In this document: piece by piece, positions 2,550 through 61,328 of the stretch | Layout of the letters: every line of letters starts with the position of its first letter | Numbering within the stretch: position 1 is the stretch's first letter | Made by a program: the position numbers and the translations under genes | The notes under the pieces: model-generated | Told to the model about the DNA's origin: nothing | Databases searched by the model: none | What the model saw: the letters and a program-made list of their open reading frames with translations, nothing else | Origin: a virus | Virus record (IMG/VR): IMGVR_UViG_3300029922_000031 | Location: 32,001-96,000 of that record | Strand: one strand, 5' to 3' | DNA length: 64,000 bases

Positions 2550-3626
2550 TTAGATCGCGTCGAGCTCCGCGAGGATCGAATTGACCTCGCTCGGATCGAG
2601 ATCGGTCGACTCTTCCATCGCCGTGCCCGGCGCCGAAGGTGCGGGCTTCTCGACGGCCGCAGTTTTCTCGACGGCCGCAGTCTTGGCCTTCGCCGCCTTC
2701 GCCTTCGCGGCGGCCGCAGTCTTGGCGGCGTCAGCAGCGTCGGCGGCGGCAACCAGTCGGCGCATCTTGTCCATTTCGGACTCGACCGCCACGACGGGCT
2801 CGGCTTCGGTTTCGGTAGCGACGATCTCCTCGGCGATCTTCTCGATCTCCGGATCGACCACCGCTTCGGCGACACGCGCCGACGGACTGGTCAGCAACGC
2901 CGCCGATCTCGGCCCAGCGATCGCAATGCCCGACGTCGAAATGCCGGTCATGTTGACGATGGACGTGATCGCCTTCGTCTCTTCTCCGCGGAAGAACTCG
3001 CGTTCAACCAGGGCGAACAGGTCGACGGCCTTGTCGATCGACGCCTTCGAAACAGGCTTCGCGCTGGGGTGAGGCATGACGGTATATTTGGTGTCGAAGC
3101 CCTTGCCAGTGCGCTCGATGGTGAAGTCGAAGCCCTTCTCGTAGTCGAGAATGTTGCCACTCTCGGCCTCGTATTCGTCGATCATGGAGAGGATCGTACC
3201 GAAAGTGGTCGGCGTCACCTCGAACGGAACCGGATCCTCGGAAGCATCCGGGCCGGAGCGAATGACGGCGTTCAACAGAACGGCCTTCTTCGCCTTCCAT
3301 TCCGTCATCAGCTTGATGTCGTCGTCGGAGACGGCACCCTTGATAGCGCGTTCGACAGCGGCGGCGACAGGACTCGGGGTGCCGTAGACGATGTCGGAGT
3401 TGCCGACGACTGCGACGGGCTTGCCGCCCATCTCGGTCTTGATCCAGTGGACGCCGTACTCGAGCCAGAACTGGCCGGGGACCGCAAGCGGACCCATCGC
3501 CTGGACTGGCAGAATGCGAAGACGGGTCTTGCCCTCCTTCGCCTTCTTGATCTCGTTGGTTCCACGAGAATATTTGTTCTTCGCGCCTTTGATCAGCGCG
3601 AGCATAGCGGGAGACATGGTAGCCAT
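2550..3626 (-). CDS. Single-stranded DNA-binding protein, T4 gp32-like
   Basis: RLRILP...FW...GVHW, G.DF.I.RTGKGFDTKYTV; low-complexity linker and acidic C-terminus. Confidence 0.75.
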   Translation of the reverse strand: MATMSPAMLALIKGAKNKYSRGTNEIKKAKEGKTRLRILPVQAMGPLAVPGQFWLEYGVHWIKTEMGGKPVAVVGNSDIVYGTPSPVAAAVERAIKGAVSDDDIKLMTEWKAKKAVLLNAVIRSGPDASEDPVPFEVTPTTFGTILSMIDEYEAESGNILDYEKGFDFTIERTGKGFDTKYTVMPHPSAKPVSKASIDKAVDLFALVEREFFRGEETKAITSIVNMTGISTSGIAIAGPRSAALLTSPSARVAEAVVDPEIEKIAEEIVATETEAEPVVAVESEMDKMRRLVAAADAADAAKTAAAAKAKAAKAKTAAVEKTAAVEKPAPSAPGTAMEESTDLDPSEVNSILAELDAI

Positions 3627-3702
3627 TGTGCTTGGTTCTTTCGTGCTTTTAGAGACTTTGGGTTCTTGCCTCTTCGCGAAGTCGCGAATTAGCTAACTCT
3701 AT

Positions 3703-3721
3703 TATAGCGAGAAACGAGCGG
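3703..3721 (-). promoter_or_regulatory. CCGCT-N8-GCTATA promoter (copy 1; others at 4652, 19711, 22680)
   Basis: Minus strand CCGCTcgtttctcGCTATAAT upstream of SSB. Confidence 0.65.
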
Positions 3722-3852
3722 TCTGACGTGGGAAAAGTAAGTCAGAATTGATGGGTCGCGGTCGGCGGGCTCTATGCGGTTAAATGCCGCGATCTTGCCT
3801 GTTCATGTCGACCCGATCTATGCCAAGCGAGCCGACCGCGAAACTTGGTAGG

Positions 3853-4101
3853 TCAGTCGCGAGGCGGCCAAACCCAATAGCGGGACGACCCGCCGAGCGA
3901 GTCATTCTTGTGAGCGACGGAGCCGGCGTAGAAATCATCGCCGAAGGGCACGAAGACCTTCAGATTGGCGTAGGGGCCGTCAGGGAACACCTGCGCGACC
4001 AGCGCTGCGTAGGGGCCTTTACCCGCACCGTTGTTGGCGTCGTCGAACTTGGCGTCGTCGTAGTAGTGGACGATGCGGCCGACGGTTGCTTTCTGAGTCA
4101 T
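3853..4101 (-). CDS. Small hypothetical phage protein
   Basis: TVGRIVHY...YAALVAQV...ANLKVF...WVWPPR; AAGGA SD. Confidence 0.75.
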   Translation of the reverse strand: MTQKATVGRIVHYYDDAKFDDANNGAGKGPYAALVAQVFPDGPYANLKVFVPFGDDFYAGSVAHKNDSLGGSSRYWVWPPRD

Positions 4102-4110
4102 GTTGTTTCC

Positions 4111-4620
4111 TTAGCTGCTCGCACCGGCGAGTCTCGCGGCCACCCGCGAGCCCATCGCCTGCACGCCTTCCTGCGCGACGGACTTGGCCCTCAAGGACAA
4201 CTCGCCCCGCATTTCTTCCCGCTCGGTCGACCCGTGCTGGATCAGCATGTCCTTGCGCTGCCGGAAGGCGTCGACCGCCGTACGGGCAACCGCCTCGACC
4301 TGCTTCGCCTCGTTCAGCGCCAGGCGCAGACTGATGACGACTGGATCACAGTCGACTTCCTTGTCGAGCGTCGCGACGGCGACCTTCTCGCCGGCCGCCG
4401 CGTAGCTGTCCCGCAGCTTGCGGTAAATCTTCGACTTGCCGAGATCCAGGAGAAGCTCGAAGTCATCGACCTGCTTCGCCGCCTGCGACGCCAGCACGCC
4501 GTAGTGAACGTACAGAGAGGCTTGCTGCATCATCGCCGTGCTGAGATCGGCGAGTGAGTAGGCCAGGTCCTTCTTGACCTGGTCCTTGTCGATGAAGTTG
4601 GTGATCTTGCGCGTCGACAT
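4111..4620 (-). CDS. UvsY-like recombination mediator
   Basis: Helical protein; KKDL...LY..Y, D..V and VDAFRQR pattern resembles T4 UvsY; near recA and SSB. Confidence 0.6.
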   Translation of the reverse strand: MSTRKITNFIDKDQVKKDLAYSLADLSTAMMQQASLYVHYGVLASQAAKQVDDFELLLDLGKSKIYRKLRDSYAAAGEKVAVATLDKEVDCDPVVISLRLALNEAKQVEAVARTAVDAFRQRKDMLIQHGSTEREEMRGELSLRAKSVAQEGVQAMGSRVAARLAGASS

Positions 4621-4681
4621 TTGCTTCTCTGTAAGTCAGCGTTGATCTATGTATAGCACGAAATAAGCGGTTTGCACGCGG

Positions 4682-4837
4682 TCAGTCGTCTTCCTCGTGA
4701 TCGTCCGTGAGAATCTCGACGTTCTTGGACTGACACTGAGGACAGCCGTCGAACTCAAGCTCGCTGAGATCCGCGACGCCACCCTTGCCGCAGTCCACAC
4801 AGCGGAAAGCAACCCATTCGTCATCACCCATAGCCAT
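4682..4837 (-). CDS. 51-aa zinc-ribbon protein (not in the ORF track)
   Basis: MAMGDDEWVAFRCVDCGKGG...DGCPQCQSKNVEIL...; GGAG SD immediately after the dnaE stop. Confidence 0.75.
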   Translation of the reverse strand: MAMGDDEWVAFRCVDCGKGGVADLSELEFDGCPQCQSKNVEILTDDHEEDD

Positions 4838-53582: not shown

Positions 53583-54473
53583 TTACTTTTTCTTCGCGGC
53601 AGCAGCCTGAGCGTTGAGAATCGCTTCGATTCGCGACGCGCCAGTCAGGCCCTTGGCCGCGGCCGCGGCGGCAACTGCCAGGTCGGCAGTCGTCGAACGC
53701 GCACCAGCCGCCAACTTGGATTTCAGAAGGCTGGCGTGATCCGGGTCGGCCGCGACGATGCGCTTGATTGCCTCGTCGAACGCCAGCGGCTTGCCGGAGG
53801 CGTCGACCAGCTTCGTACGGTCGGCGGAGCCCTTCGGCTTGTCGTAAGCGATAACCGCGCCCTCTTCGATCTCGAAGTTCGAGCCGTAGACCTGGCGAGC
53901 CTTATTCGGCGGCAACACCATCTCCTTGCCGATGAAGTCCGAGCTGGAGAACGCCGAACCGATGGTCAGATCGCCAATCTGCCCGGTGAGCTTAGCGACG
54001 TCGGCCGACTGCGCTTCGATCTGCGTTCTCAGCTTGGTGACTTCCGCAGCGTGCTCGTCCGCCATCATCTTCTTGACGCGCTCGTAGTCGCCGGTCTTCT
54101 CGGCAGCCGCCTTCTCGGCGCTGACCTTGTCGGCAAGCATCTTCTTGATCTCGGCGACATCGATGCCGTCGAATTCCTTGAGCTTGGCGGTCAGATCCTC
54201 GATCTTGGCCTTGCGACTCATGCTCTCCTTGAGAAGCGCGGCTTCCTTGTCGCTGAGCCCGCTATTGGCGTGCTTGTCGGCCTCGAGTTTGGCGGCAGCG
54301 GCCTTGTCAGCTTCGGCCTTGTCGGCGATAGCTTTGTCGGCAGCGGCCTTATCGGCGGCAGCCTTGGCGGCAGCCGCAGTGTCAGCGCCACCACCCGTCC
54401 CATCTTCGGGCTCCAGACAAACCATGCTGTAGAGCGAGTGATAGGAGTTGGTGTAGTTAATCAAACGAAACAT
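53583..54473 (-). CDS. Capsid scaffolding protein
   Basis: Coiled coil with AAADK repeats; lies between portal and capsid. Confidence 0.8.
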   Translation of the reverse strand: MFRLINYTNSYHSLYSMVCLEPEDGTGGGADTAAAAKAAADKAAADKAIADKAEADKAAAAKLEADKHANSGLSDKEAALLKESMSRKAKIEDLTAKLKEFDGIDVAEIKKMLADKVSAEKAAAEKTGDYERVKKMMADEHAAEVTKLRTQIEAQSADVAKLTGQIGDLTIGSAFSSSDFIGKEMVLPPNKARQVYGSNFEIEEGAVIAYDKPKGSADRTKLVDASGKPLAFDEAIKRIVAADPDHASLLKSKLAAGARSTTADLAVAAAAAAKGLTGASRIEAILNAQAAAAKKK

Positions 54474-54551: not shown

Positions 54552-56345
54552 TTATGCAGTCCGACTCGTCACCTGTCCTTGGCGCTTACTCGTCTGCGAA
54601 TTCTTCTTGGCGGGCGGCTTGCCACCGGCCGGGGGTTCAACTTGAGTTTGAGGCTGAATCGCCGGCGTCTCTGAGTCGGTCAGCTTGGCCGGGAACGTCG
54701 CGGTCGGATTGCCGGAGAGGACGCCGTTGATCTGAATCTTGTCGGCTTCCGTGATCGGCCAGGCGTCGAGATCGGCGAGCATCCGCTTCTTCAGATCCGC
54801 CTTGAGAGACGGGAAGAGCTTGTCGATGATCTGCTTCATCTGCTCCTGACGAACCGACGGCGGGGCATCGATCAGCTTAAGATTCTCGGCGACCGTGAAT
54901 TCGTCGTAGAGCGAGCGAACGTCGAACGTGTCGGCGTATTTGACCAAGCCGTTCTGACCTTCTTCCTGATCCGGGTCGAGATAGTCGCCAGGCTTCTCGC
55001 CATTCCAGGCCGCTAGAAGCTCGACGATCGCGTTCTCGGCGTTCTGTAGCGCCTCGGATTTTGTCGTCAGCAGACTGTTCAGCCGCTCAAAGTCGTAAGC
55101 CTTGGCGACGCCGGAGGAATTGTCGATACCGACGGCGTTGTCCTGCTTGGTGCGCTCGCCGCCCATGCCAACCGAGTGATAGATCTCGTTGATGATCTTG
55201 TTCACCACCGTAACGATGACCTCGGCCTGCTTGACGTCCGGGCTGAGATAGAAGGGCGCCGCGCCGTTCTCGCCGTCGTAAAGAAAGACCCGCTTGGTCC
55301 CCATCTCACGAATCTGCTCGTACTTGTCGTCGCCAGGCAGCACGTTCTGAGCCGGCATCGCAAGCTGCGAGAAGGTTTGATCTTGAATGATCGCGTCGAG
55401 ATTGGAGAGATAGTTGGCGGTCGCGCGGTCTAGGTAGGCGATGTCGGCGATCAGTGCGGGCGCCGAGTATTTGCTGTCACCCACGACGTTGCGGAGCGGA
55501 ATGCATGGGACGCGGCCAATCGTCACGAGCCCCTGATCGACCAATTTGACAACGACCCTGTTGCTCTTGTCGGCCTGAAGAACATAGGGAAGGACGCCGG
55601 GCAGCGTGAGTTGCTGAATGGCGCCCTGAGCCGGCTGAATCATGTTGAAGGAGGTCGATGGCGCCGTCGTGCCATCCGGCTTCATGTCGGCGTTGTCGGT
55701 AATCTCGAACAGATACCAGGAGTCTTCCGTCCACAAACGATAGCGGAAGCGAACGATGCCGGTCGATCTGATCGGGTCGGCGTCGTCTCGAACTCGTTCG
55801 CGCACCAGCATCCATTGCAGCGTGCCAGCTTCGGAGAAGCCAGCATCGAGCACATCTTGCGGTTTGACGACGTAAATGTAACAGCCGGAGCCGCTCGCCT
55901 GCTCGTCGGCCTTGGTCAGAACGGCCTCGCTCTTGCTGGAATCGACGAATAGCCAGACCAGTCCAAGCGTTGACGCCTTGGTCGAAGCCAGGCGCATGAA
56001 TTGCTCGATATTGAGCCCATCGAGCGTCGCCTTGCGCCAGAACTTCAAAACGTAGTCGGGCGCGTCGCCCCAATTGCGAGCGACAGGGCTCTTGAAGATG
56101 TATTTCTGAATGAGATCAACCACTTCGCGGGTGTGGTTGAAACGATAGGCGCGCTCGACGCGCTCGTCGTATTCCTGATCGCCCTCTTTCACATAGCGAA
56201 AGATGTTGCCGCGAAACCAGACGCGACCGCCCTCGTAAGTCTCCTCGCAGAAAGTCCAGTGAGAGTGCAGGCGATCGTAGTCCGGGTGGCGACGCGCTAG
56301 AAAGTCTTGCAGCGTCTTCTGGTCGGCTACATCAATCGTAAGCAT
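54552..56345 (-). CDS. Portal protein
   Basis: RHPDY...YEGG...RA..FN, SGVAKAYDF; follows terL. Confidence 0.9.
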   Translation of the reverse strand: MLTIDVADQKTLQDFLARRHPDYDRLHSHWTFCEETYEGGRVWFRGNIFRYVKEGDQEYDERVERAYRFNHTREVVDLIQKYIFKSPVARNWGDAPDYVLKFWRKATLDGLNIEQFMRLASTKASTLGLVWLFVDSSKSEAVLTKADEQASGSGCYIYVVKPQDVLDAGFSEAGTLQWMLVRERVRDDADPIRSTGIVRFRYRLWTEDSWYLFEITDNADMKPDGTTAPSTSFNMIQPAQGAIQQLTLPGVLPYVLQADKSNRVVVKLVDQGLVTIGRVPCIPLRNVVGDSKYSAPALIADIAYLDRATANYLSNLDAIIQDQTFSQLAMPAQNVLPGDDKYEQIREMGTKRVFLYDGENGAAPFYLSPDVKQAEVIVTVVNKIINEIYHSVGMGGERTKQDNAVGIDNSSGVAKAYDFERLNSLLTTKSEALQNAENAIVELLAAWNGEKPGDYLDPDQEEGQNGLVKYADTFDVRSLYDEFTVAENLKLIDAPPSVRQEQMKQIIDKLFPSLKADLKKRMLADLDAWPITEADKIQINGVLSGNPTATFPAKLTDSETPAIQPQTQVEPPAGGKPPAKKNSQTSKRQGQVTSRTA

Positions 56346-56399: not shown

Positions 56400-58121
56400 T
56401 CAACGGGAAACGCCCGCGATCTCGATCTTGCGAACGGGATACTCGAGATCGATGCAATAGCCGACCGCGTCCGCGGCGTGTTCGATGTTCATCGTCTTGT
56501 CGACCTCACGGGTGCCGGGCTTGTAGATGACCTGCTCGAAAGCCGTGATTGTGTGCTTGCAGCCCTGGTCAACCCGCATCCGGATCGTGCCGTCGGCCGT
56601 CTTGAACATACGGTTGGTGGCGTTGATACGATCGGAGACCTTGGGAGACTTGCGGCGGTATTTCAGCCGAATGAAGCCGGCATCGCGCATGATGTCGAGA
56701 TCCGATTCGCCGCGAGCATGACCGCGCTGCTGGCCCGCCGGGTCAGGATAGATCGTGGTCTGCTTGAGGTGACGGAAGAACTTCTCGCCCAGCTTATCTG
56801 AGGCTTCCTGGGTGTTCGAACCGAATAGCACGACCTCATCGACGATCCAAACCTCGCCGTTGAGTTGAGGCTGCATGATGATCGAGGTCATCGGGTCGAT
56901 GTTGAAGTCCTGCCCTATCCAGATCGGTAGCTTCGGGTTGAATAGATAGTTGCCGACGTGGAGCTTGCGGTCGAAGGCGTGATAGACGCGACCGGACATT
57001 GTCTCGAAGGAGTTGAAGTTGTTGGCGCCGCTCGCCAAAACGTAACTGTGGTCATGACTATCCACGAGCATGTTCATGACCGAAACAGGCTCTGCTCTAA
57101 AAGATCGATTAACGACCTCGAGGCTGAGAAGACCGAGTTCTGGCAGCCAACGCTCTTTCAGCCATTCTGAAAAGTGCGGAAAAGAATGACCCGCGGTTGA
57201 ACTTCGACCAGCGTCGATATCCCTCAATAGGCGATGCGCCGCGCCGCGCGTCAGCCCAATCGCGGCGCCGATCTTTTCATAGGGGTAGCCATCGGCACGC
57301 ATGTCGAGCGCCGTCTCACGTCGAAACTCGGCCTTAACCCGATATGCCTTTAGATATTTCGACCATTGCCAGCCGAGAAGCTCCTTCGCATCGCAATAGG
57401 CGAAGCCAATCTTATCGAAGAAGACGACGATGCCGGCTGTGCCGTCGTTCACCCGCAACCAATACGTCTTGTAGTCGTCGCCAGTCGCCGAGACCGACAT
57501 CGTCACCCCAAGATCGAGCGCCATCGTCTGAAGTTGGTCGAAAAACGCCTGACCATCGAAGCCGGCCGCCTTGCACATGTTAAGAGCTGGTAGTCGCGGC
57601 ATTCGAGACTTACCGCTAATGTCGTGCGCCGGCGCTGTCCCTTCCGCGCCGAATAAAGCGGCAAGATAGGCACGCTTCACCGCAACGTCGCCATTGATGA
57701 TCCAGTCCGGCACTAGAAAACTCTGTCGAACCTTAGCGCCGATCGGCACGCCAAAGTCGGCGAGATAGCGACAGTCGCTCTCGCCGAGCTGAATCTGATA
57801 GCCGTCTTTCAAATGCGCCGCAGATGTCTTCTTTGAACAAACCGTGACGCCGTCACAAAGACCAAGCGATTGAAGATCGCTCAAAATCGCCTTTAGATCA
57901 TCTCGCTCATTGCTGTAGAATGCACCCTGCATTCTAGGGTAGAGCGAAATTGAGCCATCTCGCTTTGTGTATTTAGAATGAGAAAGCACGATCGTGCCGT
58001 CGCCGGTCATATAACCAACAAGCGCAGCAAGCTTCTCGTCGCCGGTGCGCGGCGCGTAGAGTGTAGGCGAAATCTCGATACGCTCAATCTCATCAAGCGC
58101 GATCTTATGAGGCGTCAGCAC
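56400..58121 (-). CDS. terL: Terminase large subunit C-part: intein-C with LAGLIDADG endonuclease, then nuclease extein
   Basis: LVGYMTGDG, YLAALFGAEG, HDHSYVLASGANNFN|SFETMSGRVY, GQDFN, YPDPAG, HAADA; in-frame GTG at 58121 with AAGG SD. Confidence 0.88.
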   Translation of the reverse strand: MLTPHKIALDEIERIEISPTLYAPRTGDEKLAALVGYMTGDGTIVLSHSKYTKRDGSISLYPRMQGAFYSNERDDLKAILSDLQSLGLCDGVTVCSKKTSAAHLKDGYQIQLGESDCRYLADFGVPIGAKVRQSFLVPDWIINGDVAVKRAYLAALFGAEGTAPAHDISGKSRMPRLPALNMCKAAGFDGQAFFDQLQTMALDLGVTMSVSATGDDYKTYWLRVNDGTAGIVVFFDKIGFAYCDAKELLGWQWSKYLKAYRVKAEFRRETALDMRADGYPYEKIGAAIGLTRGAAHRLLRDIDAGRSSTAGHSFPHFSEWLKERWLPELGLLSLEVVNRSFRAEPVSVMNMLVDSHDHSYVLASGANNFNSFETMSGRVYHAFDRKLHVGNYLFNPKLPIWIGQDFNIDPMTSIIMQPQLNGEVWIVDEVVLFGSNTQEASDKLGEKFFRHLKQTTIYPDPAGQQRGHARGESDLDIMRDAGFIRLKYRRKSPKVSDRINATNRMFKTADGTIRMRVDQGCKHTITAFEQVIYKPGTREVDKTMNIEHAADAVGYCIDLEYPVRKIEIAGVSR

Positions 58122-58344
58122 GGTGAACCTTGAATTTATGATGTGCGCTGGCTGAGATGATCTCGCCAGTCTCCAGTATAACGTCACAAATTATTTTGCG
58201 CCCCGTTTCACCGATACGCAATACGCTTGTTGGAATTCTTTCGCCGTCGGGTGTAATATGGATTAGTTCGTCACCAAAACGAATATCCCGAATAGCCTTA
58301 ACTTCACCATTCCACATGCGAACTTGCGTCTCAAGCAGATGACA
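57012..58344 (-). mobile_element. Intein with LAGLIDADG homing endonuclease, discontinuous across two reading frames
   Basis: Cys1 at 58344 after FRQEFEA; terminal Asn at 57014-57012 before Ser+1; visibly lower GC. Confidence 0.9.
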
Positions 58345-59064
58345 CGCCTCGAACTCCTGACGGAACGACTTTTCATCCATATCGCCGCGGGCCGCTTCGA
58401 TTTCTTCGGGCGGGATGAACGGCGAGGTGATCGTCGGGAACTGCCAGCTTCTCCAGGGATTGACCCGCCAGATCTTCTCCTTGCGATCGAAATAGTTGTC
58501 GCCGCGCTGGCCGAGCATGTAGACGTCGTAGAGCCAGTTGAAGCTCTTCGGGGTGCCGATGATGATCGCGTCGCCGCCGGTCGAGGCCAGCGTCGCGCGC
58601 AGCACCAAATACCAGGTGTCGGGCCGCACGTCCTGCGCCTCGTCGATCACGACCAGGTCGAGAGCGGTGCCGCGGAGCGTATCCGGCTTGTCGGCGCCCT
58701 TGCACTCGATGATCGTCCCATTGGCGAGGAAGATCGTCATCAGGGTTTCGTTGATCTTGACGATCAGCCCGCGCGGGATCGTATCGATCAGCTCGCGCCA
58801 CATAATGCCGCGCGCCATTCGATAGGTCGGCGCGACGTACCAGATGAGTTTCTTGGGCTTGCGGGCAGCGATCAGAATCGCATTGCGGGCACAGGCGGTC
58901 TTTCCCCATCGGCGGCCGGCGACAATGACGCGGAAGCGCCGACGATCATTTAGAACCGTAGCCTGGCCGGAATGCACGAATAGACGCTTGGCGTCAGCGC
59001 GCAACGCCCCGCGAAACGCGCGCCAAGCGACCTTTTCAGCCTTCATTGCAGCCGACAGAGCCAT
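58105..59064 (-). CDS. terL: Terminase large subunit N-part (ATPase) + 79-aa intein-N
   Basis: AGRRWGKT, VVIDE, IGTP, FRQEFEA|CHLLETQV...SAHHKF. Confidence 0.92.
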   Translation of the reverse strand: MALSAAMKAEKVAWRAFRGALRADAKRLFVHSGQATVLNDRRRFRVIVAGRRWGKTACARNAILIAARKPKKLIWYVAPTYRMARGIMWRELIDTIPRGLIVKINETLMTIFLANGTIIECKGADKPDTLRGTALDLVVIDEAQDVRPDTWYLVLRATLASTGGDAIIIGTPKSFNWLYDVYMLGQRGDNYFDRKEKIWRVNPWRSWQFPTITSPFIPPEEIEAARGDMDEKSFRQEFEACHLLETQVRMWNGEVKAIRDIRFGDELIHITPDGERIPTSVLRIGETGRKIICDVILETGEIISASAHHKFKVHRADAS

Positions 59065-59750
59065 TAGCTCTCTTCCTCGATCACATCGTCGTCGAGGGAA
59101 GGAAGTTCCTCATCGTCGTTCTGCTGGCTCTTGCGCGCCGCAATGATCTCGTCGTCGCCCATGTAGCGAATGTCGATCTGCGGCAGCTCCTTCTCATCGA
59201 TCTGGTCGTCGATGCCGAGCAGGCGACGCATCGCTTCATCGATCACGACGATGGTGCGCGCGGCGCCATTCGCCTCTTTTACCGTCGGCCCGACGCCGCC
59301 GCTGGCGAGGTCTTCGCGCCAGTGCTTCTGTCGAACACCTTCAATTATCATGGCGCTACGGAGCTGAGCGTAAGCCGAAAGCTTGTGCTCCTCGATGTAT
59401 TTGAGCCGGCGATCGGCGAAAGTCTCCTTGATCTCAGCTTCTTTGGAGGCCGCGGCCGCGGCAACTTCGGCCTCGCGCGCGAGCTTTCGGCAAGCGAAGG
59501 TGATCTTCGCCTGGCGCAGGAGTTTCGAGACGTATTGAACGGAGATGCCGAACTTTAGAGCGCAGGCGCTAGGCTTGGTCAGACCCTCTGCGACCTGGTC
59601 ACGGATCCACTGACGGTCCGCAGGGGTGGTTTTGCCCATCCCGGCGACAAAGACGCGCTTCTCCTCTTCCGGAGCCGCAGCGATCTCTTTTTCGAGCTCC
59701 GCGTCATCGGAAGCTGATACGCTCTCCGCAAGCCCTTCCTCTTCACTCAT
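59064..59750 (-). CDS. terS: Terminase small subunit (HTH)
   Basis: HTH (CALKFGISVQYVSKLL); stop overlaps the terL start. Confidence 0.7.
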   Translation of the reverse strand: MSEEEGLAESVSASDDAELEKEIAAAPEEEKRVFVAGMGKTTPADRQWIRDQVAEGLTKPSACALKFGISVQYVSKLLRQAKITFACRKLAREAEVAAAAASKEAEIKETFADRRLKYIEEHKLSAYAQLRSAMIIEGVRQKHWREDLASGGVGPTVKEANGAARTIVVIDEAMRRLLGIDDQIDEKELPQIDIRYMGDDEIIAARKSQQNDDEELPSLDDDVIEEES

Positions 59751-59802
59751 AACAAGTCCAATCAAAACTGACTGATGATAACACATCCCGGAGGATGTCC
59801 AT

Positions 59803-59870
59803 GTCCGTCCTCTCAATACTTACTAATAACTGTTAGTGATTAGTAGTTAGTACTTATTGAGAGGCTGGAC
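59803..59870. repeat. 16-bp imperfect inverted repeat around a 36-bp AT-rich core
   Basis: GTCCGTCCTCTCAATA ... TATTGAGAGGCTGGAC (14/16). Confidence 0.8.
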
Positions 59871-59878
59871 GCGGATTG

Positions 59879-60181
59879 TTAGAATTCCGCGTCCGGAATG
59901 GGCTTGAAACGCCTATAGGCGGCCGGGGTTGGTTTGATGAAGCACTTCATTCCCGGCTTCTCTGGTCCATGATTCTTACCGTAGACCAGTTCCACGGCGC
60001 CGTGATCACGCAAATAGCGTAGGGAGCAGCTAATTGCGGCCTTAGATACCTTCGGACCATAGGATAGCGCCGCTTTCAGCTCGTCGAGCGACGGAATCTG
60101 CCCCTTACCGAGAAAATTGAAGACGGTGCGAAGGATCTCGGCCTGCTTGTCCGTCGGGTCGAAGTTGTCGAGACTGCTCAT
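59879..60181 (-). CDS. Winged-helix DNA-binding protein (LexA-N-like)
   Basis: TDKQAEIL...PSLDEL...SKAAI...LRYLRDHG. Confidence 0.75.
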   Translation of the reverse strand: MSSLDNFDPTDKQAEILRTVFNFLGKGQIPSLDELKAALSYGPKVSKAAISCSLRYLRDHGAVELVYGKNHGPEKPGMKCFIKPTPAAYRRFKPIPDAEF

Positions 60182-61086
60182 GAAAGTACCAGGGGCTCAG
60201 TTGGGGGTTGGCGATCGAAAGTGTTCAGTGCGAGCTCTGCGGGAAGCGCCCTACCCCGGTCCGGGTTCTTGAAGACGCCGTACATCGGGCTGGCGAGCAC
60301 CATCTGCTGGATGTTCTTGATCAGGGCGTGATCCGTCATGCCGTCGACGCGGGATGTGCCCTTACCCTTGTTGACGCCCGTCTTCTCCATGTGGGAGTGG
60401 CGATAATAGAAGGTCCGGCACTCGGCGATGAGCTTTTCGCGCTCCAGACCGGTCTTGGAGCTGAGCTCGTCGACGATCGCCTCGTAATCTTGCGGGCTGG
60501 CGACGAAATTCTCGCGGAAGAAGCGAATCCCGACGTCGAATTTGTTGGAATTCAGCGGTGTCACGAAGCGAAAGCCGGCCTTCTGACCAAAATGGTTGAA
60601 TTTCGACATAGACGACTGAATCTCCATGAAGGTGTTGCCCTCCATGCGTGCGACCAGATTCATCATCCGGTAGCCGCAGCCAATGCCGCGGTACATCGTG
60701 TCGAACACGAAGCGACCGATGACGCGAAAGTTGTCGTTGATGAAGACGTAGCGCTGCGTGTTGACGATCTTGGTGTCGCCGCCTTTGGGCTTGAGCTTTG
60801 GGAAGGCGATGTGGCGCTCCTTCAGGAGACCCTTGGGCAGCCCGGTGACGATGACGCCGATGGTCTCGCCATGTAGCGTGGTCTTCCAATATCGGGCTCC
60901 CATCGGGATGCCCTCGGCCTTGTAGTGCAGGTGATGCAGCAATTCCCAGTCGCTCTTGTCGCCCCTGCTGACGATCATGTCGTCTAACAGCGAGAAACGA
61001 GCGCTGGGGTGCATCCGTCGTTCGAGACGTGCATCGCAAGCCCCAGACTCGAGATACTCGTCAGTGAGCTTCTCTGTGAATGTCAC
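60178..61086 (-). CDS. GNAT-fold acyltransferase-like protein
   Basis: HLHY, RVIGRFVFDTMYRGIGCG (motif A), FGQKAGF; GTG 61086 overlaps the upstream TGA. Confidence 0.75.
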   Translation of the reverse strand: MTFTEKLTDEYLESGACDARLERRMHPSARFSLLDDMIVSRGDKSDWELLHHLHYKAEGIPMGARYWKTTLHGETIGVIVTGLPKGLLKERHIAFPKLKPKGGDTKIVNTQRYVFINDNFRVIGRFVFDTMYRGIGCGYRMMNLVARMEGNTFMEIQSSMSKFNHFGQKAGFRFVTPLNSNKFDVGIRFFRENFVASPQDYEAIVDELSSKTGLEREKLIAECRTFYYRHSHMEKTGVNKGKGTSRVDGMTDHALIKNIQQMVLASPMYGVFKNPDRGRALPAELALNTFDRQPPTEPLVLS

Positions 61087-61328
61087 GGCAGCGTGCGCCG
61101 ATCGATGAAGAACTCCACGTAGAGGGCATAGCCGCCGCGGAAATAGAGCCACAGCCGGCGCCCACTCCATTCGGGGTGCGGTTCCAGGTACGGATTGAGA
61201 CGACACAAGGTCATCGCCATGATGCGCGGCATCGACTTCGCGCCATGATGCGTCCCCTCACGCTCCCAGTGAGAGAGGCTTCCGTTGATCTTCAGGGACC
61301 AGCGGCGTCGCTTGATTAGGGTGATCAC
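61083..61328 (-). CDS. Hypothetical protein (81 aa)
   Basis: GTGA overlaps at both ends. Confidence 0.5.
   Translation of the reverse strand: MITLIKRRRWSLKINGSLSHWEREGTHHGAKSMPRIMAMTLCRLNPYLEPHPEWSGRRLWLYFRGGYALYVEFFIDRRTLP

Follow-up and report, generated by a model that had tools for sequence, protein, structure and literature searches.

Protein engineering makes central use of split inteins, whose origin is usually ascribed to breakage of an intein at the endonuclease insertion point, with the endonuclease lost or separated. Reviews and primary papers up to 2025-26 distinguish only two types, one broken at the endonuclease position (~100 + 40 amino acids, aa) and an atypical one with an N-terminal fragment (IntN) of 15-25 aa (PMC11923092, PMC11766414, PMC7891396), and the common definition of a split intein is that of a mini-intein in two parts (PMC4760082). 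In the former type, comprising DnaE (Npu/Ssp), gp41-1, NrdJ-1 and IMPDH-1, the break lies at N4/C2, the IntN has ~88-120 aa and the C-terminal fragment (IntC) ~33-54 aa, and there is no endonuclease (PMC2677866, PMC11923092). In the latter, comprising GOS-TerL, AceL-TerL and other S1 splits, the break follows motif N1, and the short IntN is paired with an IntC of ~120 aa, both being parts of a mini-intein (PMC2677866, PMC11766414). Here we describe a large terminase gene (terL) that is broken into two overlapping open reading frames (ORFs), ORF1 and ORF2, inside an intein with a LAGLIDADG homing endonuclease. The gene lies in a 64,000-nucleotide (nt) stretch of viral DNA, hereafter the window, which comprises bases 32001-96000 of the 105-kb IMG/VR virus record IMGVR_UViG_3300029922_000031. 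To judge from the sequence, the sole large terminase (TerL) of this virus is probably made from two coupled genes, broken in a class-1 intein, of which the products trans-splice.

The window shares with canonical natural split inteins a class-1 Hint domain distributed over two chains, one extein on each chain, a Cys1 and a terminal Asn, and an essential enzyme that needs reassembly. In those inteins, however, the break is placed ~20 residues (two strands) later than in the window, where it falls between block B (N3) and N4; the window-type IntN has 74-84 aa, its IntC has ~370 aa and contains a complete in-frame LAGLIDADG endonuclease, and its two halves lie side by side and overlap instead of occupying separate loci. 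With GOS-TerL and AceL-TerL the window has in common that the host protein is a phage large terminase and that the split site is non-canonical, but it differs from them in insertion site (EFEA/SFET), break site and intein lineage. According to Dassa 2009, all natural split inteins but one terminase, with a very short IntN, break where endonuclease domains sit (PMC2677866). The original prediction for this locus had drawn the same line, between DnaE-type splits at the endonuclease position that lack the endonuclease and atypical TerL splits with a very short IntN. The window departs from the usual definition of a split intein in that the endonuclease is present; its break, moreover, is neither at the insertion point (S0) nor after N1 (S1).

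In fractured genes, a free-standing GIY-YIG or Vsr-like endonuclease lies between the IntN and IntC genes, which makes three genes, with overlaps of 6-69 bp, and the fractured-gene cases of atypical splits likewise keep the nuclease gene separate (PMC2677866). The window resembles these in having a phage gene split by an intein with a homing endonuclease, a stop/start overlap and a cassette that could be mobile. Unlike them, it consists of two genes, the LAGLIDADG domain is the original in-frame domain of the intein, and no free-standing endonuclease ORF is found. The Hint domain, the LAGLIDADG domain, the extra DNA-binding module and the Hint C-end are shared with PI-SceI, PI-PfuI and the TliVMA intein, which are single chains that splice in cis, whereas the chain of the window lineage is broken by a stop and a restart. 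A survey of inteins in actinobacteriophages, published in 2025, reports endonucleases that are encoded out of frame or antisense, as well as a single split intein (phage Zeenon), and no layout of this kind. A search of the full-text literature, outside which most subscription journals lie, returned no equivalent natural split with an in-frame LAGLIDADG, so that its absence from the literature is probable.

Conservation of the break, the extein junction and the catalytic residues

ORF1 and ORF2 belong to a packaging module on the minus strand. ORF1 carries the ATPase extein of TerL and 79 aa of IntN, and ORF2 continues with 370 aa of intein that end in NNFN and are followed by SFETMSGRVY. The layout first proposed, with the ORF1 stop at 58105, ORF2 in the +1 frame, AAGG-N6-GTG at 58121, an overlap of 17 nt, 79 + 370 aa of intein and an F-N end, is correct at every coordinate, and the two LAGLIDADG motifs and the helix-turn-helix (HTH) insert ascribed to ORF2 were located at the residues given in Table 1. 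There is no ORF between ORF1 and ORF2, and the endonuclease is in frame inside ORF2. ORF calling by program extends ORF2 to an upstream GTG (58187); the alignment of 55 ORF2 homologues, all of which open with a Met at the identical alignment position, favours 58121.

Both proteins were searched against 5.8 billion proteins, and the matches were sorted by four gene parts and clustered at 90% identity. The split arrangement is represented by at least 59 clusters of IntC with C-extein (ORF2-like) and at least 41 clusters of N-extein with IntN (ORF1-like), beside 11 clusters of contiguous intein-bearing terL and 96 of intein-less terL. Identity to the window is 42-65% over the ORF2-like and ORF1-like clusters (42-61% for the ORF2-like ones). 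The 41 homologous IntN fragments, 74-84 aa long, all end 0-10 aa past HHKFKV[HY], with tails that are unrelated to each other. In a library of representatives at 50% identity, split-type proteins that are 30-41% identical and sit on different TerL subfamilies begin at the identical structural position. Given this recurrence in dozens of divergent homologues, the two-ORF layout is far beyond chance. The suggestion that a break just after block B, with the endonuclease on IntC, constitutes a different architecture is upheld by the same clusters.

The same break was also sought, as had been proposed, in individual genomes. The exact ORF1 protein (P0121) is present on seven contigs, and a contig from another sample (L005) is 99.89% identical to the window over 4538 nt that span the junction (5 mismatches, 0 gaps). 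Two isolates carry the arrangement: Chelativorans composti JCM 17863 (L083) has the identical two-ORF layout, and in Methylocaldum szegediense, to which locus L164 was assigned by a match of its ORF1 tail to P0135, the halves are annotated by NCBI as separate proteins (P0135 and P0009). Loci came from alignment-based scans of genome and viral contigs, to which single-protein scans of the same contigs added nothing. Among INPHARED phages neither megablast nor, with IntC, tblastn found a match, and among PLSDB plasmids the sole match was an unrelated archaeal RtcB intein (23% identity). We note that two PHROGs families named 'terminase large subunit' are of half length, phrog_7579 (profile 239) matching the N-extein only and phrog_10250 (profile 228) the C-extein only; reference phage genomes may therefore already contain split terL genes of this type that have gone unnoticed.

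An intein-less TerL (P0070) reads FRQEFEASFETMSGRVY across the insertion site, which is exactly the predicted spliced junction. The matches of the N-extein and the C-extein abut at residue 236 of P0070, within the sequence EFEASFETMSGRVY, and the window intein interrupts a segment that is continuous in intein-less homologues. The expected product of splicing, FRQEFEASFET, thus matches this homologue exactly.

The residues used by class-1 inteins are retained on both fragments. On the IntN side, Cys1, HLP, ETG and AS.HHKFK are each at least 90% conserved in the 41 fragments, and the S-x-x-H of block B is kept in every variant listed (ASNHH, ASRTH, ASDYH and others). On the IntC side, the C-end, which reads DHSY...NNFN/S, contains nine residues that are invariant in 55 sequences (N350, V353, S355, D357, S359, Y360, G365, N367 and N370), and H358, F369 and S371 (Ser+1) are at least 90% conserved. 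The endonuclease residues GDG (D41) and GAEG (E160) are invariant in the same 55 sequences; the Pfam LAGLIDADG_3 match in the window itself is under the curated cut-off (20.1 vs 22.5 bits). From its sequence, the window intein looks like an active class-1 intein with all splicing residues kept.

Where the break falls in the fold was read from an AlphaFold model of a contiguous relative (L165:2776-4095), which is 47% identical to the window protein and was modelled from an alignment of 92 rows with a mean predicted local distance difference test score (pLDDT) of 96.4. The best Foldseek matches of the model, which include the endonuclease-bearing TliVMA intein, PI-PfuI and PI-SceI (E 2e-15 to 1e-10), identify the Hint horseshoe fold, and its endonuclease domain aligns with I-DmoI at a template modelling (TM) score of 0.70-0.77, normalised to the target. 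Motif N1 comprises residues 1-10. A strand (70-73) follows the block-B His and leads through a tight turn (74-75) into two further strands (76-79 and 85-88); the endonuclease begins at about residue 95, with the first LAGLIDADG helix from residue 98. In this model the break maps to the hairpin turn 74-75, which precedes the endonuclease insertion point, the canonical split, by ~20 residues. IntN would end at the hairpin, and the two strands at the start of IntC would supply the rest of the N-half of the Hint fold. A PDB sequence search with the Hint N-half gave non-significant matches only (DnaE intein 4kl6, E = 0.74), so the mapping onto Npu numbering is only approximate.

Translation of the two ORFs and competing explanations

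Six junctions were read as DNA. ORF1 and ORF2 overlap by 17 nt in the window and by 11 nt in L164, both with a GTG restart; by 11 nt in L083 and L163 and by 8 nt in L178, with an ATG; and by 4 nt (ATGA) in L179, again with an ATG. ORF2 is in the +1 frame in the first five and in the -1 frame in L179, where its frame is shut by a TAA three codons ahead of the ATG, leaving almost no room for a shift. In all six, the Lys-Val codons conserved in block B supply an AAGG that precedes the restart codon by 6-9 nt. Neither a slippery heptamer (X XXY YYZ) nor a prfB-like site is shared by, or present at any of, the six junctions, and RNA folding of the 121 nt that cover each junction and the sequence downstream of it gave z-scores of +0.3 to +1.3 against shuffled sequences, with no stable structure. 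Such weak folding has the look of an initiation region rather than of a frameshift stimulator. Nine IntN clusters have one-residue tails (A, V, K or E), all of which would be compatible with an NNA-TGA/ATG overlap. The varied overlaps, both frame relations, the AAGG and start codons, and the lack of a slippery site or RNA fold together argue for translational coupling over frameshifting.

No sigma-70-like promoter was found ahead of ORF2 on the minus strand, and together with the stop/start overlap this makes it most likely that expression of ORF2 is coupled to that of ORF1. The original prediction had allowed for separate expression of the endonuclease, which these findings do not support. 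A similar contact exists at the other end of ORF1, where its ATG shares one base with the stop of the gene for a small-terminase (TerS)-like protein, at 59062-59066. Stop/start coupling appears to be a device of the whole packaging module that is used between ORF1 and ORF2 as well.

In the mechanism that we propose, ORF1 would yield the ATPase extein fused to the 79-aa IntN with Cys1 and the block-B His. The ribosome would restart at GTG 58121, which lies among the final codons of ORF1 and has the AAGG 6 nt upstream, and ORF2 would yield the IntC, composed of two beta-strands, the full homing endonuclease with its HTH module, and blocks F and G ending in Asn, followed by the nuclease extein from Ser+1. 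Strand complementation would bring the fragments together and restore the Hint horseshoe. Trans-splicing would then proceed by an acyl shift at Cys1, transfer to Ser+1 and cyclisation of Asn370, giving a TerL of 443 aa whose junction, EFEA-SFET, is that of intein-less relatives. Once excised, the two-chain intein would retain endonuclease activity, and the split cassette as a whole could home into terL alleles that lack the intein. We infer separate translation, association of the fragments, splicing and endonuclease activity from the conservation described above.

Several points weigh against this mechanism. The penultimate His is replaced by Phe, and the replacement is itself conserved and is known from active inteins. 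To our knowledge, no natural or characterised split intein works from the N3/N4 site. Apart from the six junctions read as DNA, most homologues are called proteins with starts chosen by gene callers, and low-level frameshifting may give some contiguous precursor. Frameshifting or recoding throughout, by which the overlap would be crossed to make a contiguous precursor that splices in cis and the two ORFs would be only apparent, would account for the +1 relation at five of the six junctions, for the ORF2 frame being open ~17-40 codons upstream of its start at these five, and for the fact that a one-base repair gives a loop length exactly as in the contiguous relative P0061. It is nevertheless an unlikely reading of the family, to which the -1 relation of L179, with its ATGA overlap and three open codons, is opposed, as are overlap sequences and tail lengths that are unrelated between lineages, the spaced AAGG and ATG or GTG at every junction, and the one-residue tails, if these do reflect NNA-TGA/ATG overlaps. 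With no slippery motif, both frame directions and no stimulatory RNA structure, a programmed frameshift, raised as an alternative from the outset, was rejected.

Another reading is that the halves stay unspliced and the intein pieces serve as a non-covalent dock for the ATPase and nuclease of TerL. Aeh1 split NrdA offers a precedent: that enzyme is assembled by mobile-element-derived domains, a documented case of a fragmented phage enzyme rescued without a covalent link (PMC3045599). The missing penultimate His would also be in keeping with a dock. A mere dock would not need Cys1, the block-B His, the block-F Asp/His, the terminal Asn and Ser+1, which are near-invariant across lineages only 42-61% identical; moreover, TerL would be interrupted within the conserved EFEA/SFET segment and would bear ~450 aa of foreign protein. 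We regard docking without splicing as very unlikely. Least credible, with practically no weight left to it, is an indel introduced by sequencing or assembly, or a mutation that recently inactivated the gene and left a dead terL in a defective element. The locus does come from a single metagenome-derived virus record, and a one-base change makes the frames contiguous; yet L005 has the same junction without a gap, exact ORF1 copies recur, dozens of divergent homologues, isolates included, share the break with different junction sequences, and both exteins and intein are strongly conserved. Sequencing error and pseudogene formation, which had been listed among the alternatives, are ruled out by the independent assemblies, the conserved break and the differing junction sequences. 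Trans-splicing of two coupled gene products is the explanation that we retain.

Locus, intein lineage and family

The features of the locus are collected in Table 1. No second terL was found in the 105-kb record, of which the completeness is estimated at 93%, and the ORF1/ORF2 terL is its sole copy. Just upstream of the packaging genes, a 342-aa protein at 60178-61206 on the minus strand matches phrog_886 'ABC transporter ATP-binding subunit' (E 3e-114), an unexpected gene to find beside a terminase operon.

Table 1. Positions in the window of the split terL gene, its parts and the neighbouring packaging genes
Feature	Position	Strand	Remark
ORF1, TerL N-extein + IntN	58105..59064	minus	319 aa + TAA; Terminase_6N at residues 47-183; phrog_2 TerL
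N-extein, ATPase domain ending FRQEFEA	58345..59064	minus	240 aa; 91% identity to P0070 residues 13-236
Walker A	58897-58920	minus	in N-extein
Walker B	58630-58656	minus	in N-extein
IntN, starts CHLLETQ	58108..58344	minus	79 aa; 6-aa non-conserved tail after block B
Block A with Cys1	58321-58344	minus	IntN start; Cys241 of ORF1, after FRQEFEA
Block B, S-x-x-H, ASAHHKFKV	58126-58152	minus	in IntN
Shine-Dalgarno-like AAGG	58128..58131	minus	6 nt before GTG; encoded by block-B Lys-Val codons (AAG GTN)
ORF1 stop TAA	58107-58105	minus	preceded by the 6-aa tail
ORF1 stop/ORF2 start overlap (break point)	58105..58121	minus	17 nt; +1 frame for ORF2
ORF2 start GTG	58121-58119	minus	opens reading frame of IntC
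ORF2, IntC with homing endonuclease + TerL C-extein	56400..58121	minus	573 aa + stop; identical database protein P0001
Start of IntC, two predicted beta-strands (N4-like)	58065..58118	minus	first ~19 aa; from AlphaFold model of relative; LD..[WI][LI]E[FI].P pattern conserved
LAGLIDADG motif 1	57993..58031	minus	ORF2 residues 31-43; catalytic Asp41; Y37, G40, D41, G42 invariant in 55 sequences
LAGLIDADG motif 2	57636..57668	minus	ORF2 residues 152-162; catalytic Glu160; A155, L156, G158, A159, E160 invariant in 55 sequences
HTH module after endonuclease core	57216..57287	minus	ORF2 residues 279-302; PF08281 on homologue P0064; helices 315-395 of model
Hint blocks F + G	57012..57080	minus	ORF2 residues 348-370; D357/H358, penultimate Phe369, terminal Asn370
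C-extein, TerL nuclease domain from Ser+1	56403..57011	minus	203 aa; 85% identity to P0070 residues 236-438; phrog_10250 TerL
TerS-like DNA-binding gene	59064-59816	minus	adjoins ORF1
Portal gene	54552-56345	minus	packaging module
Scaffold gene	53583-54473	minus	packaging module

The split and contiguous states are strongly clustered on the intein tree, where they require 3 changes, of which at least 2 are forced, compared with 10.3 in shuffles; as this tree has long branches and no root, a single origin of the split state is not established. On the C-extein tree the window belongs to a clade of nine (97-98 support) of which the other eight members are intein-less, and P0002, the nearest intein relative of the window, is placed in another part of that tree, amid intein-less alleles. 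At least 5 changes are needed to account for the presence of the intein on the extein tree. Grouping all intein-bearing alleles costs 117 log-likelihood units (approximately unbiased test, p = 0.04, a weak result because the group was named after the tree was seen). The pattern of the two trees would fit continued homing of the split cassette, and might also stem from repeated precise loss.

In five contiguous relatives (P0055, P0056, P0059, P0060 and P0067) the intein lies two residues upstream (QEF/CHLP...NNFN/CASFES) and the +1 nucleophile is Cys, not Ser; the insertion point has apparently slid within one intein lineage. Other members of the TerL family carry additional inteins. P0027 (887 aa; on a Logan contig of 108,971 bases) is a split-type ORF2 homologue with an extra ~310-aa intein in the nuclease C-extein, between NLEH and CSDALGY, and P0077 has no intein at EFEA/SFET and a LAGLIDADG intein in the ATPase domain after KGADKPD. 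At L163:785-4716 (IMGVR_UViG_3300035181_000217), terL consists of three overlapping ORFs (785-1663, 1656-2990 and 2980-4716). A second, unrelated intein at IFIG/TPK is also split there; its C-fragment starts right at a LAGLIDADG motif and retains the endonuclease (LAGLIDADG_3, E 6e-15, with an Intein_splicing C-end). Since that gene has two endonuclease-retaining split inteins, both would have to act in series. The TerL family is, as its sequences suggest, a hot spot for inteins.

The exteins also occur outside the virus record. In complete genomes, 237 E. coli plasmids (~108-190 kb) match the C-extein only and appear intein-less at the insertion site, at the sensitivity of a DNA search. An ORF1-like protein labelled E. 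coli (P0138, a third-party annotation (TPA) record) could not be placed. Matches of genome contigs to the extein family fall largely on contigs of ~100-115 kb from Yersinia pestis, Kluyvera, Xenorhabdus and Faunimonas. The family is thus carried by elements of plasmid size, which would fit SSU5/pMT1-like phage-plasmids.

Implications for split inteins

We lean, with some reserve, towards the view that these loci represent a widespread family of split inteins of a kind absent from the literature searched, characterized by a new N3-N4 hairpin site, an apparently active LAGLIDADG endonuclease on the C-fragment and coupled ORFs with a ribosome-binding site in block B, which can still spread as a unit into intein-less terL. 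In annotation, such genes are now called 'LAGLIDADG endonuclease' and 'terminase domain protein', and they could pass for pseudogenes. Cultured hosts, Chelativorans composti JCM 17863 and Methylocaldum szegediense, carry the arrangement, which makes direct tests feasible; contiguous, split and intein-less alleles coexist in one TerL family, and the order of events is therefore testable.

A conserved family of this kind, broken two strands early and with its endonuclease still in frame, would provide a new natural split site and an IntN of 74-84 aa already evolved for reassembly. If the reading is true, these genes would be a living intermediate, in which an intein can split before its endonuclease is lost and away from the endonuclease insertion point. 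Splitting and endonuclease loss would then be separable steps, and such a family suggests that a split intein may stay a mobile homing element.

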